A DNA stretch of 64,000 bases from a virus (Duplodnaviria > Heunggongvirae > Uroviricota > Caudoviricetes), in the IMG/VR virus record IMGVR_UViG_3300037280_000066, positions 54,061 to 118,060 of that record; one strand, written 5' to 3'. Made by a program: the position numbers and the translations under genes. Of this stretch, positions 1,945-63,916 are shown piece after piece. Numbering within the stretch: the stretch's first letter is position 1; each line of letters begins with the position of its first letter. The notes under the pieces were generated by a model. The model did no database searches and was not told where the DNA came from. It saw only the letters and a program-made list of their open reading frames with translations.

Positions 1945-4900
1945 ATGATATTGTATGAAAACTATCATAAACATACTCATTTCTCCAATATTTTTACACC
2001 TGACAGTGCAGTTACTGTTAAGGATTATGTGAAAAGATGTTTAGAATTAGGACATAAGGTTCTTTCAAGTATGGAACATGGCTTCCAAGGAAGATATTAT
2101 GAAGTTTATGAATTAGCAAAGAAGAATGATTTAAAATTCATATTTGGGGCAGAAGCATATTGGGTTAAAGATAGACATGAGAAAGATAATACAAATGCCC
2201 ATATCTGCCTATTTGCTAAAACTGAAAAGGGTAGAAGAGAAATTAATAGAATTCTATCTGATGCAAATATTGATGGTTATTACTACAAACCAAGGGTGGA
2301 CTTAGATTTACTTCTAAGTCTTACTCCTAGTGAAGTATTTATAACTACAGCATGTGTAGCATTTTGGCATTATGAAGACATAGAAGATATAGTACTTCAA
2401 TTACATAACCACTTCAAAGAAAGTATGATGCTTGAAGTTCAATATCATAATACACCTTCTCAAAAGACTCTTAATCAGAGAATTTTAAGATTGAGTAATA
2501 CATATGGTATTGAGATGATTATGGGATGTGATAGTCATTATATTACTCCTGACCAACATCAGGGCAGAGCAGATGTTCTTGAAGCAAAAGGTATTAGGTA
2601 TGATGAAGAAGATGGATGGTTTATGGATTATCCTGATGGAGATACTGCCTTTCAAAGATTCATTGACCAAAAGATTTTATCAAAGCAACAAATATTAAGA
2701 GCTATGGAAAACACTCATATCTTCTTAGGATTTGATAACCTTGAATTTAATAAAGATATTAAGCTTCCAACATTATATCCTGATAAGACACAGGCAGAAA
2801 AGGATAAAATTTACATAGATATTATTCTTAAGGAATGGAAAGAGTTTTCAAAAACTATTCCTGTAGAAGCCCATGCTATGTATAAAGCAGAAATTCAAAA
2901 AGAAGTTAGAACCATTATAAATACAAAAATGGCAGATTACTTCTTAATTGACCATGAGATTGTTAAAGAAGCACAAAAAATGGGTGGAATCATCACCAAT
3001 ACTGGTAGAGGTTCAGGGGTATCATACTTCACCAACACACTTTTAGGATTCTCTAAGGTTGATAGAATTTCATCACCTGTTAAACTTTATCCTGAAAGGT
3101 TTATATCAGAATCTAGAATCTTGGAAACTAAATCATTACCAGACTTAGATTTGAACTGTGGAAATCCAGAAATTTTTGCCCTCGCTCAGACCAAAGTTTT
3201 AGGAGAAGGTCATAGTTACCCTATGATAGCTTTTGGAACGTTTAAGAAGCTCTCAGCGTTCAAACTTTATGCTAAGTCTCAAAAGTTATCTTTTGATTTA
3301 GCAAATGAAATAACAAAACAGATTGAAAAGTATGAAGATGAATATAAATATGCAGATGATGATGAAAAAGACTTGATTGATATTTATGATTTCATTGAAC
3401 CAGAATATCATCACATTTATGCAGGTTCTGAGAAGTATACAGGTATTATTGCTTCTAAGTCACCTCACCCTTGTGGTTATTTAATATACCAAGGTAATAT
3501 CAAAGAAGAGCTTGGCTTAATGCTTGTTAAGAGTGAATCTACCAAGAAAGAAACTCTTGTTACTGTTATTGATGGTGGTATTGCAGAAGAATATAAGTTC
3601 TTAAAGAATGACTTACTTAAAGTTGACGTAGTTCTCTTAACAGACCTTATATATAAAAGGATAGGTGTTAAACCTCATACAGTTAATGAACTCCTTGACC
3701 TTGTAAGGAATGATGAAAAGGTTTGGGATATATATAAGAATGGTTGGACAATGGGTATTAATCAATGTGAGAAGTTATCTACAACTAACAAAGTTAAGAG
3801 ATATCAACCTAGAAACCCATCTGAGTTAACTGCCTTTATTGCAGGTATTAGACCATCATTCAAAAGTATGTATTCTATATTTGAATCTAGAGAACCATTC
3901 TCTTATGGTATTCATAGCTTTGATGATATTATTGTAACTGAGGAAATGCCTAATTCATTTGTTTTATATCAAGAACAGACTATGGCAACACTTGCCTATG
4001 CAGGTTTCTCTGTTGATGAAACTTATGGAATCATTAAAGCAATATCCAAGAAAAAACCTGCTGTAGTTAAACCATTGCAGGAGAGGTTTATCAAAGGCTT
4101 TACTGAAAAGATTATGGCTAATGAGAAAGTTACATATGAAGAAGCCTTAGAAATGAGCCAGAGAGTTTGGCAAATTGTTGAAGATAGTAGTGGATATGGT
4201 TTCAACGCTTCTCATGCTTACAGTTATGCTCTTGATTCATTATACTGTGCTTACTTAAAGGCTTACTATCCAATGGAATTCTATGAAGTAATGCTTGAAG
4301 TATATTCAGATAAAGGTAATAAAAAGAAGGTATCTAAGTTCAAACAGGAAATGGAACAGGCATTTGATATCAAAGTAGGAGAATTGAAGTTTGGTAAAAA
4401 CAACAAAGGTTTTGTTGTTGATATGGAAGCTAATACAATTAATGAATCAATGCTTTCTGTTAAGTATCTGAACCAACAATGTTCAGAAGACTTATACATA
4501 TTAGGACAAAACCAATATGAATCATTTACTGATGTTCTTATGGATGTTGCATACAAAACAGGTGTTAATGCTAGGCAGTTATCAATCTTGATTAAATTGA
4601 ATTACTTTTCTGCATTTGGCAATAACAAGAAGTTGTTAGATTTTGTTGAATGGTTCAATGTGTTTTATAAAGCTAAGACCATTAATAAAGAGAAATATGC
4701 AGATAACCAATTCATATTAGATACAATTACTGCACATTCAAAACAAACAGATAAGCAATTTAAAGAGTTAGATAATGTCCAGATTTTAAAAAAGATATGG
4801 GATACAATAGAGAATAAGAAGATTAAACTGTCAGAGCAAGCAGGATTTGAAGCAGAATATCTAGGATATGTTCAAGTTAAAGAACCTGCAATTTCAAAGG

Positions 4901-42336: not shown

Positions 42337-43116
42337 TTACATAAATACAGGAAAATTACATCTTACATTTATTATGCATTTTCCAGTGACTTGAATTGTA
42401 TTTTGACCAGTTACTAACCTTAACCAATTCAAATTGAAACTATCAAATTTATAAAGTCCTGTACTCGAAATAAGTTGTTTTTTACTATTGTTTATATATA
42501 TTGTCTCTCCTGTTGATAATCCTGTTAATGCTGTTATCCTACCTCCATCACTTAAGTTCATTAATGATACTGATGTTGCTGTATCAACTAAAGTTATTTC
42601 AATTTCAGGATAATAATAATCATTTACATTTGAAAAATTACCCAATTGAATATTTGTAGTTGTAGTATTTGTGCTTAAATTAAATGCTTGTATAGATGTT
42701 GGTAGAAAGGCATATGGGTATTTACATTTAAATTCCACATCAATATAACCTTCATTTAATCCATTTGTGATAAAATCAACTTTAGATGTTGCCATACAAT
42801 ATAAGATTTTATCAGTATTATCGTCTGATATAAAAGGTTTATATGTATTTTGGAATAACCAATTTCCAATTTGGTATAATTTATCTTTATCAAAAGCATC
42901 TTCAAGTGGTGCAAAAGTTAATGTAAAAGTTAACTGTTGCATTTTTGTTCTATAAAAATATGGTGATTCTGCTCTACTTGGATATTCATCTAAAATTTCC
43001 TTGGGAGAAACATATACCACAGGAAATAATCCACTATCTTTACGCACTATACTAATTCCCATATCTTCACTTCTAATACCATTATATTCAAATAATGTTG
43101 AAATCATAAAATCCAC
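42337..43116 (-). CDS. distal tail protein (Dit)
   Basis: FEYNGIRSEDMGI, LTFTL, WLFQNTYKPFISDD, FKCKYPYA, NWLRLVTGQNTI. Directly after the TMP. Confidence 0.8.
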   Translation of the reverse strand: MDFMISTLFEYNGIRSEDMGISIVRKDSGLFPVVYVSPKEILDEYPSRAESPYFYRTKMQQLTFTLTFAPLEDAFDKDKLYQIGNWLFQNTYKPFISDDNTDKILYCMATSKVDFITNGLNEGYIDVEFKCKYPYAFLPTSIQAFNLSTNTTTTNIQLGNFSNVNDYYYPEIEITLVDTATSVSLMNLSDGGRITALTGLSTGETIYINNSKKQLISSTGLYKFDSFNLNWLRLVTGQNTIQVTGKCIINVRCNFPVFM

Positions 43117-43182
43117 CTTTCCTTTCTTTTATTTTAATTTCTAAAACATACATATAAGTATATAAGAATTATATAGATGTTT

Positions 43183-43219
43183 TAAAAATTAAAGACAGGG
43201 TAAGGGCAACCCTGTCTTT
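43183..43219 (-). terminator. hairpin / intrinsic terminator between tape measure and Dit genes
   Basis: AAAGACAGGGT / ACCCTGTCTTT 11-bp stem (43191-43219), U-rich tail on the - strand. Confidence 0.65.
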
Positions 43220-43224
43220 AGAAA

Positions 43225-46200
43225 CTATCTATATATTCCACCCTTGTTAAGCAGTTTTTTAATTTCTCCTGCAATATTACCAGTTTCTTTCTTTAAGCTA
43301 TTCACAGTAGATGCATCTGCGTTTCCATCTATATTTATCTCTACATTTATATCTCCATAATTTCCTGTTGCAGGTGTGTTTGCAGATTTCACACTAAAAT
43401 TAGGAACAAACTTAGTAGCTAAATTCGTAATAAAATTTGTCATTTGATTAGAACTTAACGCATATTTTGATTGATTAAATGTATTAGTTGCATTACTAAT
43501 ATCGTTAATGTTATGATTAGAATTCATCGCATTGCTAACATCACTGGTATTATGATTATGATTAGAATTAGTTGCATTCCTAATATCACTAATATTACTA
43601 GTATTATCATTTAAATTAGTAGCATCACTAATATTGCTAGTGTTATCATTATTCATATTATTAATAGAATTTCCTCCAATATTACTATTGGAACTATTAT
43701 TGATTTTATGATTATTTTTAACATTAGTATTAGCATCACTAATATTATGATTGTTAATATTTGTATTAGTATCATTAACACTATGATTACTATTACCATT
43801 ATGATTATTAACATTACTATTAACATCATTAATACTATGATTATTAATATTTGTTTTATTAACATTCTTATCATTAACAACATTGTTAATATCATTTTTG
43901 TTATTACTAACATCATGATTATTATTAATATTATTTTGATTAGTATTGTTAACATTATGATTCACATCATTAACCTTTTGATTAGTATGATTTATATGAT
44001 TTACATCATTTTTATTACTAACATTATGGTCAACATTATTACTAATATCAGTATCAATATTATGATTATGCATGATATCATTTTTTGATTGAGTGTTATT
44101 ATTAGTCAAATCATTTTTTGTATTACTATGATTTGATATATACCCATTCGTGATATCATTTTTGTTATGATTATTAACTAAGTCATTTTTTACAGAACTA
44201 TTATTATGATTATCAACAAATTCATTTGTGGCATTGTTATGTTTAGTATTATAATCATTTTTATTGTTGTTAGTATTATTATGAGTAGTATAATCATTAT
44301 TATGAGTATTGCTATTATGGTTAGTCGCATAATCGTTATTATTAGTATTGTTATTATGATTAGTTGTATAATCATTTTTAACATTAGAAACTTGAGATTT
44401 ATCAGGAATGTTTTCTTTATGGTCTGATGCTAAATTTTTAACAAGTTTAGTCATTTGACCAGAATTCAACACATATTCAGGTTCTTGCTCAGTTCCATGT
44501 AGATTATATAAACCAGTTTTTGTAACAGCCCCATTCTCAATACCTTTAGCATAACTACCTAATGATTGTGGAGTATATTGAGCTTCTTGGTCTTCATGAA
44601 GTTTTTGAGCGTAAGTATCTGCTTCTTGATATGTCTTAAATTTACCCAAATACTTTCCTGTTTTATAATAAGTGTCTCTGGCTTCTTTATCAGTCATTAT
44701 TCTGCCATCATCTGATACAGTAGGAACTAATATTTCCATTCCACTATCTTCATCCTCAAAGCTCATAGAACGCACTGTACTGAAAGAACCATCTGAATTC
44801 TTAACAACTGGTCTACTATTTAAATCTATGTTACCTGCTCCATAGTAAGGCTGTTTAGGTGCAGGGGTTGGTGCAACTGATGGTGTTACTGTTTTTACAG
44901 TTGATGATGCTGTAGTTGTTTCCTTCACACCTGTTGTAGATGTTCTCATATAACCTTGATAATCACCAGAAGTGATATCAGGATACTTAGCTCTTAAATC
45001 TTCTGCTTCTTGGTGATATGATTTTTGCATATCTTGAATCTGTTTTTTCCAAGTTGCATCAGAATCATAATATCCTGCATCTAAGTTTTTCTGTAAATCC
45101 ATATATTGTTTCTGCAAAGTACCTACACGTTGTTTAGCATTTTCAGAATCTGAATATATAGGAACATCCTTTTGATTAGAAATCGTATTATTAACAGCCT
45201 GATTTGCACCATTAATAGCAGTTTGTGCAGGTGAAGGAGGTGCTGTTACAGCAGGAGTACCTTGAGCATTAGGAATTAAACTCCCACCACTAAGAGTGTT
45301 AATATCTATTAATGCTTTCTTAGCATTTTCAAGTTTTGCTAAGAAATCCCTATCTATCTTATCTCCTAATAACTTTAAACCATCTCCAAATGTTCTTGAA
45401 AATGTTGTATATAAAGTTTGAACTGATGTTATTTTAGTTCCAGATTCTTCTAATTTTCCAGTGAAGTTAGTTAGATTATCTCTAACTGGTTTCATAGCTT
45501 TATCAAATTCCTCTGTAGTCTTAGCTAACATAGCATTACGAGCAATAGCGGCTACATTTTCGTCAAATAACTGTTCATCAATTGTAGTCTTTTTAAGGTC
45601 AGTTTCCTTCTGTAATCCTGCTTTTTGGTCATTATAATTGTTTGTGATAAGTTCTCTATTACGTTTAGTCTTCAAATCGTCAATTTTTAAATCTTGGTCT
45701 TTCATTTGCTTTTCGAGTTCTTTACGTTTTTGATAACCTTCAAAACTACTATCTGCCATAATAGCATTAAGTTTTTGTTGAATGACTTGCTTTTCATCAG
45801 TTTGAACTTTTAAGTCTTTACCATAATCTTCTGTTGCATTCTCTCTATCAAAAGCTTTTAACTTTTCATCAACATAATCATTATAGTCTTTCAACTTTTT
45901 ATCAAGAATTTCTTTCTCTTTTGTAGCACCCTTTTTGATAATATCCTGTATTGCAGTCTCAGTATCTGTAATGTCTTGCAGTTTAGTATCATTAAGTTCT
46001 TTCATTTGAGCTTTTAATTCTTCTGATGTTCCTGCCACACTATCTTTTAGAGCATCTTGCTTATCTCTATATTCTTGTGTGCTAGTAATAGTTTTATCAG
46101 TCACAGCATTAACTTTGTTAAGTTCAGCAGTCTGTTTTGCAAGAAATGCAGTAGTTAACACAATCATATCTTGACGATTTTTTTCCTTACCTGCAAAATC

Positions 46201-62736: not shown

Positions 62737-62768
62737 AAAAAAAACCCCCTTATCCTTTTTTAAGGGGG
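62737..62768 (-). terminator. intrinsic terminator (conditional, overlaps an alternative hairpin)
   Basis: On the - strand: CCCCCUUA-loop-UAAGGGGG followed by U8. Confidence 0.8.
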
Positions 62769-62804
62769 CTTGAGAAATTAATCCCAAACCCCCTTATCTG
62801 TTTG

Positions 62805-63177
62805 TATTGCAACCATATAGCCAAGAGGAATACCTTGAGATAATTGAATTACCCCTCATAACCTGCTTCTTGGATTTCATCGAGTCTTGCTATCCTAATT
62901 TCTAAATCCTGAAACTTCCTCGAAAGGAAGTGTAAAAAGAAATTTGTGTTCTGAAACCTGAATCCTGATGTTTGAACTTTGAACTTTCATATTGTGTCCC
63001 TTATGGACTTCTTTTAATCACTATTATATAGTGAACATATGTATTATCTGTTAAGATAATATTCTTGTTCTTCTAAAAAATAAGAATATCAAATTCTGAT
63101 TTTATTAAATCACCAGTTATATTTTTACCCAAAATATTAAGGGAATTCAAATTCAAGGTTTTCATATGATTGCAATA
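62805..63177 (-). ncRNA. putative structured non-coding RNA (~373 nt) directly after the 213-aa gene
   Basis: No ORF in the track. 14-bp end-to-end stem containing a G-U pair that works only on the - strand. Several internal hairpins including a UUCG tetraloop, and a 7-nt periodic array. Confidence 0.7.
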
Positions 63178-63187
63178 TCTTTATTAA

Positions 63188-63829
63188 TTATCCTTCAATT
63201 GTGATTCTTGTTATTACATTGCTTTCACTTAAAACGAAGTCTACCTCAGAGTTGAACTGTTCAATGCTATCTTTCAATGCCTTGATTTTCTCCCCTAATT
63301 TTAGAACATCTAACACTTCATGCTGATTCTGTTCTAAATATGGTTTGCTAATAGCTTCAACTTCATCTGCTGTTGCTTTTTGCTTTCCTTCTTTTCCAAG
63401 TGTTGTAAGTAATAATTCATCAAGCTTGATTTGTACTGCATCATTTGCTCTTTGAACAGCTACTAATGCTGATTGGTATTGTCTTTCCATATGTGAAAGA
63501 AGTAATATTTCATAAGAAATAGATTCTTTTCTTTCAATGGCTTCTGCTACTGTCATTTCTTTACCTGCAATTGTTACTTTTGAGTTTGCATTGCTTGCTA
63601 CTATTGCTGACTTGATTCTCTTTCTTCTTTCAGTCAAATCAACTACGCTTTGGTAACTTGCTTCTGCTTTTGCTGAATACTCAGCAGGTGTGTCAATGTT
63701 GTTAACTTTCTTTGCACTTTTCTTATATGAAACTATAAGACTTGCATCAGAGATTGCTCTTTCAATCCTACTATGTAGAAGTTTTAACTCTGCTAATGCT
63801 CTTTGAATTGACATTTCTGAATTTGCCAT
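63188..63829 (-). CDS. conserved-type hypothetical helical protein (213 aa), candidate partner of the downstream RNA
   Basis: RBS AAGGAG, own promoter. Internal repeat MSIQRALAELK / MTVAEAIERK, SYQSVVDL..RRKRIKSAIVASNA. Confidence 0.85.
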   Translation of the reverse strand: MANSEMSIQRALAELKLLHSRIERAISDASLIVSYKKSAKKVNNIDTPAEYSAKAEASYQSVVDLTERRKRIKSAIVASNANSKVTIAGKEMTVAEAIERKESISYEILLLSHMERQYQSALVAVQRANDAVQIKLDELLLTTLGKEGKQKATADEVEAISKPYLEQNQHEVLDVLKLGEKIKALKDSIEQFNSEVDFVLSESNVITRITIEG

Positions 63830-63887: not shown

Positions 63888-63916
63888 ATCATACCACACT
63901 CTGAACAATTTGTCAA
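63888..63916 (-). promoter_or_regulatory. sigmaA promoter driving the 213-aa gene + RNA
   Basis: On the - strand: TTGACA (63916-63911), 17-nt spacer, TG-N-TATGAT (63893-63888). Confidence 0.85.

Follow-up and report, generated by a model that had tools for sequence, protein, structure and literature searches.

Short RNA motifs repeated at a fixed spacing are read by the proteins TRAP and HutP. TRAP binds 11 (G/U)AG repeats, one on each subunit of an oligomer. The number of repeats equals that of the subunits. TRAP has 11 subunits (PMC1474065). HutP reads XAG triplets with spacers of 4 nucleotides (nt), arranged in two sets joined by a linker of 12-17 nt (PMC2425495). A precedent of another kind is RAGATH-18, a catalogued motif beside a protein gene, which is the RNA partner of that very protein, namely the reRNA of IS607 TnpB (PMC11061315, where the survey PMC5737381 is cited as the source of RAGATH-18). 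Here, we analysed an array of seven contiguous heptamers on the minus strand of a 64,000-nt stretch of phage DNA (positions 54,061 to 118,060 of the IMG/VR record IMGVR_UViG_3300037280_000066; the whole stretch is called the window below), taken from an AT-rich phage record of 182 kb. The array belongs to a non-coding RNA, about 377 nt long, that follows the gene of a 213-amino-acid (aa) protein, referred to as the partner protein. Our comparison establishes that the array is conserved, functional and probably unpaired, and that the structured RNA to which it belongs is tied to the partner gene.

The array shares with the TRAP and HutP sites a short motif at fixed spacing in a region predicted to be unpaired. 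The likeness to TRAP would consist of an oligomer with one RNA site per subunit on tandem repeats, but the period is 7 nt and not 5-6 nt, the RNA is a separate molecule and not a cis-regulatory leader, and the protein folds appear unrelated. As for HutP, both cases have a purine motif with a 7-nt period in two sets with a linker, and AAAG-N3 contains XAG-N4. HutP reads its motifs with identical subunits of an oligomer, as the partner protein may do. However, HutP controls termination through 3 + 3 motifs in an mRNA leader, whereas the phage RNA has 7 + 3-5 units, is closed and stand-alone, and has its own partner gene. Moreover, the module occurs in phages of hosts without HutP. Neither TRAP nor HutP was found among the fold matches of the partner protein, and no Pfam or NCBIfam family was found for it, a remote likeness being possible. 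RAGATH-18 resembles our locus in that a catalogued RAGATH motif stands beside a conserved protein gene, but it is the guide RNA of a RuvC nuclease, while the phage RNA shows no sign of guiding and its partner protein has no nuclease domain.

The catalogued motif concerned is RAGATH-27 (Rfam RF03100, a candidate motif), which corresponds to the 5' 86 nt of the RNA family described here: the 5' strand of the closing helix P1, the block CGAAAAC-UUUAAAC and the first hairpin. Two loci exceed the Rfam gathering score of 76.1 bits (L035 with 91.9 bits and L028 with 78.5 bits), and about a dozen further loci match at the same place below this threshold. The Rfam model holds one hairpin and ends before the arrays; it is devoid of the partner strand of the closing helix, of both arrays and of the 3' hairpin. 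No Rfam family reached gathering anywhere in the window, and the locus holding the window region (L010) gave no RAGATH-27 match at E <=1, while the conserved single-stranded block that in RAGATH-27 comes after the first strand (CGAAAAC...UAAAC) is present, with GAAAAC at 63163-63158. The name RAGATH is absent from the main text of the survey PMC5737381, and T5.085, the partner protein homologue of phage T5, is not mentioned in the main text of the CRISPRi-ART paper. Our literature search found no paper on RAGATH-27, T5.085, a heptanucleotide-repeat phage RNA or a conserved RNA in T5-like tRNA regions, and none in which the arrays or the partner protein are described.

The array in the window is suggestive on its own

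A first-pass annotation of the window, made from the sequence alone, had described seven contiguous heptamers on the minus strand, running from 62987 to 62939 and reading AAAGUUC, AAAGUUC, AAACAUC, AGGAUUC, AGGUUUC, AGAACAC and AAAUUUC; the sequence is exactly as given there. At lags of 7, 14 and 21 the autocorrelation over these 49 nt was 0.64, 0.60 and 0.54, respectively, while the remaining lags up to 20 gave 0.08-0.41; against shuffles of the 49 nt, z was about 8. With all positions in the 64 kb corrected for, p was about 0.02 when period 7 alone was considered and 0.15-0.3 for periods 4-12. The 98-nt version, which includes both arrays and the hairpin between them, was not significant against chance (p 0.44), and Tandem Repeats Finder reported in the window only an exact 2.4-copy TTTGAAC. 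Taken alone, the array of the window is suggestive but unproven. Since the corrected p-values are modest, the window by itself cannot decide on the periodicity, and comparison with relatives was needed. Searching the intergenic region with blastn against 50,697 phage records gave no match; the intergenic DNA is too diverged for this approach, thus the comparison had to be anchored on the protein gene.

Seven-nucleotide periodicity accompanies the partner protein gene

Homologues of the partner protein were found in 743 deposited phage genomes, including those of T5 (T5.085), Pseudomonas phage phiPsa374 (gp120) and Clostridium phage D-1873, as well as in 234 genomes of bacterial species, mostly Bacillota. 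For each locus, periods from 5 to 10 were compared over the 700 nt that follow the stop codon of the homologous gene, with upstream regions as the control. Period 7 was the strongest in 76 of 80 viral loci and in 78 of 79 bacterial ones, as opposed to 7 of 76 control regions. Conservation of the 7-nt periodicity next to protein homologues, which the first-pass annotation had proposed as the point to check, is therefore confirmed. The RNA itself follows the protein gene in 154 of the 159 loci examined, and also in T5, phiPsa374 and D-1873. The window shows the same linkage: its RNA starts at 63178, on the same strand and directly downstream of a gene of the PHROG 1491/T5.085 type. The periodicity of the array is real, because a seven-unit array recurs 3' of the homologous gene and aligns column by column.

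The number and core of the units are conserved

In order to compare the arrays position by position, we used an alignment (A3) of 49 full-length RNAs, which comprises those of the window, T5, phiPsa374, Clostridium phage D-1873 and metagenomic phages, with the Rfam-positive loci L035 and L028 among them. The first A of units 1 to 7 is present in 49, 49, 47, 49, 49, 49 and 47 of the 49 RNAs, respectively, and all seven unit-initial A residues of array 1 in the window fall on these invariant columns; the heptamers first noted in the window are thus conserved column by column in its relatives. In 39 RNAs, unit 7 starts exactly 42 nt after unit 1. Across units, conservation ranges over 96-100% for A1, 88-100% for A2 and 82-98% for U6, and the pooled consensus is AAAG-(U/C)-U-(C/U). 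Successive strong heptamer matches are 7 nt apart in 139 cases, compared with 19 cases of 8 nt. Under a simple rule, an uninterrupted run of exactly seven units is found in 24 of 58 RNAs, and most of the shorter runs appear to be interrupted by a 1-nt insertion or a degenerate unit. Judged from the alignment, seven units are a constant of the family, and the window carries the canonical number.

A second array, located after a spacer or hairpin, is also a feature of the family; it has 3-5 units with invariant A columns, on which the window units starting at 62903 and 62896 fall. The UUCG hairpin that separates the two arrays in the window is lineage-specific, and most relatives have a short U-rich spacer instead. 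The first-pass annotation had stated that a strict register resumes after the hairpin. This is true of the window, but the distance from array 1 to array 2, taken modulo 7, is spread over all residues, and the arrays are in register in only 2 of the 49 RNAs, the window among them. As the phase is not conserved, the register across the hairpin is probably a coincidence, and we rejected it as a family feature. A search with a sharpened heptamer matrix found no complementary array in the RNA or in the rest of the 182-kb genome, nor any second array there; this matrix is a weak detector, since it scored the degenerate array of the window itself poorly.

The arrays are framed by a closed RNA structure

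The consensus fold (RNAalifold on alignment A3) has the order P1, GAAAAC, a 5' domain with a putative pseudoknot and variable hairpins, array 1, spacer, array 2, AAAUC, 3' hairpin, GGCU and the 3' strand of P1. In the window we find the closing helix (its 5' strand ends at the boundary between CG and AAAAC, and its 3' strand starts after GGCU), the seven-unit array 1, and AAAUC followed by the hairpin and GGCU. The putative 5' pseudoknot region of the window is the counterpart of the RAGATH-27 part in relatives.

P1 is an end-to-end helix of 13-20 base pairs (bp) across the family and is better than in shuffled controls in 57 of 64 loci; in the window its energy is -17.8 kcal/mol, compared with -8.9 +/- 2.6 kcal/mol in shuffles. 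The 18 pairs of P1 and the 3' hairpin are canonical in 97.2% of 863 cells, while the values were 31-50% with slid partners and 65.5% (maximum 69%) with shuffled columns. This pairing is kept among 47 distinct P1 strands and 17 distinct 3' hairpin stems in the 49 RNAs, and compensatory changes occur in 17 of 19 consensus pairs. The presence of G-U pairs makes the structure strand-specific, which points to an RNA rather than a site in DNA. In the consensus fold all array columns are unpaired, so the arrays are predicted to be single-stranded; it is their sequence, and not their pairing, that is conserved.

The paired ends, putative pseudoknot, long stretch predicted to be unpaired and 3' hairpin resemble tmRNA. 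However, the phage RNA has no tRNA-like acceptor, CCA end or tag reading frame, and its partner is not SmpB. The identity with tmRNA was rejected, as ARAGORN finds no tRNA-like domain or tag frame; the same program found no tRNA or tmRNA in the window. A type III toxin-antitoxin system (ToxI repeats of about 36 nt with an endoribonuclease of the ToxN/AbiQ type) was rejected as well, as the units are 7 nt long and the protein has no PADLOC or Pfam match.

Some relatives carry insertions in the RNA. A tRNA-Thr gene (L090:2235-2311) and a tRNA-like gene with an odd anticodon (L051:2213-2287) each interrupt the RNA at a point past its 5' domain and ahead of array 1. Processing by RNase P/Z might in these two cases yield two pieces held together by P1. 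One clade (L022, L025, L030, L061, L073, L076, L082, L084, L087, L091) carries an additional helix (AAAGAGGGCU ... GAGCCCAC), inserted at about columns 518-630 of A3, where it separates array 2 from the AAAUC motif.

The partner protein is a helical protein predicted to self-associate

The sole match of the 213-aa protein is PHROG 1491, which is labelled 'tail fiber protein'; this is a mislabel. No Pfam, NCBIfam or PADLOC family matches the protein. An AlphaFold2 model built with 60 homologues (predicted local distance difference test, pLDDT, of 92) shows long helices in antiparallel arrangement; the N-terminus, a central hairpin and the C-terminus together make up a small sheet of four strands. 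The invariant motifs AL-x-ELK, SN, GKEMTVAEAI and EVD-x-x-LS-x-SN all flank strands of this sheet. From the order of secondary-structure elements, the motifs are thus likely to cluster at one end of the molecule, and residues 13 and 201, of which Ser201 is nearly invariant, would lie next to the beta-sheet end of the model.

We also modelled the protein as a homodimer. The score was 0.57, compared with 0.00 for the best of three controls, with an interface along the helices; at least 94% of contacts are shared between runs, and the pLDDT of the partner chain is at least 87. Among proteins with solved structures, those that are pairs of one chain attain the mark used for homodimers in 20 of 30 cases, single chains in 1 of 23. 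Self-association of the partner protein is therefore predicted by the model.

The best fold match was PDB 3kdq, an uncharacterised protein of Corynebacterium diphtheriae (Foldseek E 6e-3; VIA-align Z 11.3, root-mean-square deviation 7.2 over 151 aligned residues). The other matches were generic coiled coils and BAR domains, and no functional analogue was among them. A profile search of solved structures gave nothing below E 0.1, with 3kdq as the second-best entry (E 0.29). As the sole structural neighbour above background, 3kdq is a possible distant relative.

Two protein residues change together with the unit core

In a monophyletic group of 11 Clostridia loci (L018, L113, L114, L119, L126, L135, L136, L137, L142, L149 and L153), all seven units have AAUG instead of AAAG (U3 in 89%). 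The protein column that separates this group best is Ser201, which is Q in 11/11 of these loci and S in 123 of the 127 others. The second-best column is residue 13, where N occurs in 11/11 AAUG loci and in 2% of the others. A sister pair (L104 and L128) combines N13 with V201, and its units read AAAA (A4 in 71%). Two further loci have another residue at position 201: with Ala (L100) the units are deviant, and with Thr (L172) they are nearly normal. Hence three of the four lineages that lost Ser201 point in the same direction, the unit core changing in concert.

Both residues belong to invariant motifs, AL-x-ELK and EVD-x-x-LS-x-SN, and both lie outside the predicted dimer interface. This co-variation, observed among aligned sequences, is the best available evidence that the protein head may read the heptamer.

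A periodic docking platform and its alternatives

The likeliest mechanism, to which we give about even confidence, is that the array serves as a periodic docking platform for the partner protein. The RNA would be transcribed together with, and directly after, the gene of the helical protein. A long end-to-end helix closes the molecule; the 5' domain with its putative pseudoknot and the 3' hairpin frame two runs of AAAG-N-U-Y predicted to be unpaired, one of seven units and, after the spacer, one of 3-5. Each heptamer would be read sequence-specifically by the conserved beta-sheet head of one protein copy, while the copies grip one another via their long helices. The array would then be an assembly platform setting the copy number and the spacing of the loaded protein. 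Its logic would be like that of TRAP and of HutP, the latter a precedent with an equal period. The first-pass annotation had proposed a single-stranded landing strip for an oligomer of the adjacent protein, with TRAP/Hfq-like logic. The first part of this proposal gains from the unpaired state of the array in the consensus, its conserved sequence, the co-variation of residues 13 and 201 with the units and the predicted self-association; the second does not hold in so far as the protein appears unrelated to TRAP or Hfq.

Several observations weigh against the docking platform. The modelled dimer leaves the seven sites unexplained, and fold searches revealed no recognisable RNA-binding fold in the partner protein. 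The co-variation goes back to just two or three events within a single part of the tree, and a third, host-specific factor to which both sides adapted jointly could account for it. The units of the window are more degenerate than the family consensus (e.g., AGGAUUC and AGAACAC). Finally, when single sequences are folded, the mean unpaired probability is 0.43 in the heptamers and 0.40 elsewhere, i.e., the array is not especially open.

Among the alternatives, the one that survives best is that the array is a sponge or decoy for some other factor, such as a host RNA-binding protein, a ribonuclease with a preference for AAAG/U-rich single strands, or the anticodon loops of tRNAs (AAA and AAG are lysine codons). 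The adjacent protein would in that case be a chaperone, stabiliser or effector. The presence of the module in or beside tRNA gene arrays in many phages fits this possibility, as do the tRNA and tRNA-like genes embedded in two of the RNAs (L090, L051). Repeated short motifs are also typical of sponge RNAs, of which CsrB and RsmZ are examples. We nevertheless consider a sponge unlikely: the motif and the invariant protein head are conserved jointly in phages that infect Proteobacteria, Bacillota and others, with their differing host factors; the unit core varies in parallel with residues 13 and 201 of the partner; and there is neither a GGA/CsrA-type pattern nor a match to any Rfam sponge family.

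It is less likely still that the array is purely an RNA architecture, a periodic tertiary or intermolecular structure made by array-array contacts or multimerisation, with the protein bound elsewhere. Large phage RNAs that self-assemble do exist (ROOL and GOLLD), quasi-palindromes occur among the units (AAAGCUU or AAAUUU type), and folds of single sequences pair parts of arrays 1 and 2. However, in the 49 RNAs no pairs covary, be it inside one array or from one array to the other, and what is kept is sequence and not complementarity; the spacing between arrays is variable, and no Rfam match to ROOL or GOLLD was found.

We regard it as very improbable that a polymerase uses the array as a periodic template, which the first-pass annotation had offered as its second option, or that the array is a functionless product of slippage or chance. 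Only 2.4 exact unit copies are present, and the periodicity of the window is unexceptional once all periods and positions are corrected for. On the other hand, no reverse transcriptase or polymerase gene is linked to the element or travels with it, and conservation position by position, seen at 154 of 159 independent loci from hosts that are very distant from one another, refutes chance and slippage. Simple slippage had looked doubtful in the first-pass annotation as well.

Hardly credible, finally, is a small gene, namely a 31-codon open reading frame (ORF; MKVQSS..., from ATG at 62990 to a stop ending at 62895, minus strand) encoding a precursor peptide for the radical-SAM/SPASM and glycosyltransferase genes: in the window it starts exactly at array 1, behind a GGGA resembling a ribosome-binding site and upstream of methyltransferase, glycosyltransferase and radical SAM/SPASM genes, but an ORF of at least 20 codons covers array 1 in only 16 of 49 homologous RNAs, on which ground we rejected it as a gene, most relatives have CUGU at the position of the window AUG, a 7-nt repeat cannot hold a reading frame, a terminator stands between the RNA and the enzyme genes, and these genes are not beside the module in T5, phiPsa374 or D-1873.

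Genomic surroundings of the module

The features of the window are collected in Table 1. The array sits in a gap of 560 nt between the partner protein gene and a methyltransferase gene, beyond which lie genes for a glycosyltransferase, a second methyltransferase and radical-SAM/SPASM proteins. At 62737-62798 (minus strand), 3' of the RNA, repeated AAGGGGGUUU / AAGCCCCCUU segments could form alternative hairpins ahead of the U-run terminator; in a scan of this region, the terminator itself was the only part confirmed.

Table 1. Coordinates of the module and flanking elements in the window.
Feature	Positions	Strand	Basis or remark
Sigma-70-like promoter (TTGACA, 17 nt, TG-TATGAT)	63888..63916	-	Candidate by consensus match only (11/12 matches); precedes the protein gene
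Gene of the 213-aa helical partner protein	63188..63829	-	PHROG 1491 family; homologue of T5.085, phiPsa374 gp120 and D-1873 CLG_B2302
Whole non-coding RNA, about 377 nt	62802..63178	-	Starts 10 nt after the stop codon; full-length alignment with 48 homologous RNAs
Closing helix P1, 5' strand	63163..63177	-	15 bp with 62805-62819; two G-U pairs valid on the minus strand only
GAAAAC junction motif	63158..63163	-	G16 and A18 invariant in 49 RNAs
Putative 5' pseudoknot (CCC...GGG stem, AU-rich loop pairing with AAAAUAU just downstream)	63119..63143	-	Assigned by eye, by analogy with T5, L009 and L001
Array 1, seven contiguous heptamers	62939..62987	-	Sequence and 49-RNA alignment; family consensus AAAG-(U/C)-U-(C/U)
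UUCG-capped 6-bp spacer hairpin (CUUCCU-UUCG-AGGAAG)	62915..62930	-	Between arrays 1 and 2
Array 2, four heptamer-like units	62890..62917	-	AAGUUUC AGGAUUU AGAAAUU AGGAUAG
Invariant AAAUC, then 3' hairpin (CCAAGA/UCUUGG), ending in the invariant GGCU junction	about 62821..62877	-	17 stem sequences in 49 RNAs
Closing helix P1, 3' strand	62805..62819	-	P1 energy and family covariation
Intrinsic terminator (11-bp stem and U run)	62742..62771	-	3' of the RNA

In T5, the RNA (L013:3634-3996, which corresponds to about 43137-43497 of AY543070.1, minus strand) occupies the space, devoid of annotation, that separates T5.085 from T5.084, and with its 3' end it reaches a feature annotated as 'promoter' (43067-43141).

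The module is often found in or beside phage tRNA gene arrays, among orphan RNAs (drum, skipping-rope, RAGATH-36 and ribozymes). Examples of such orphan RNAs near the module, in tRNA-rich surroundings, are L011:6401-6508 (Clostridium phage D-1873), L061:627-736, L073:3574-3651, L021:2502-2653, and L084:2645-2852 with 3529-3585; the kinds among them are drum, skipping-rope, sub-threshold RAGATH-36, a sub-threshold group I intron and a match to a ribozyme of the hepatitis delta virus (HDV) type. The home of the module in early regions and tRNA-gene regions of phages suggests a role in RNA or tRNA metabolism or in counter-defence.

Implications for T5 and related phages

Tentatively, and with somewhat less than even confidence, we propose that the module is a widespread and undescribed ribonucleoprotein of phages, T5 included, and of Bacillota. 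In such a particle a closed scaffold RNA would offer exactly seven (+3-5) heptamer sites for copies of a dedicated helical protein, read through a simple code between residues 13/201 and bases 3-4 of each unit, and the particle would act early on tRNA or RNA metabolism or against host defence. Public catalogues hold just the first 86 bases of this RNA. If the proposal is true, a fixed array of seven 7-base sites whose sequence shifts along with two residues of the adjacent protein would be among very few natural periodic RNA 'rulers' for protein assembly. The module would give a handle for finding the function of a conserved early gene of a classical model phage, T5, and of the poorly understood non-tRNA residents of phage tRNA arrays, and the idea of a ruler would be directly testable in T5 and E. 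coli.
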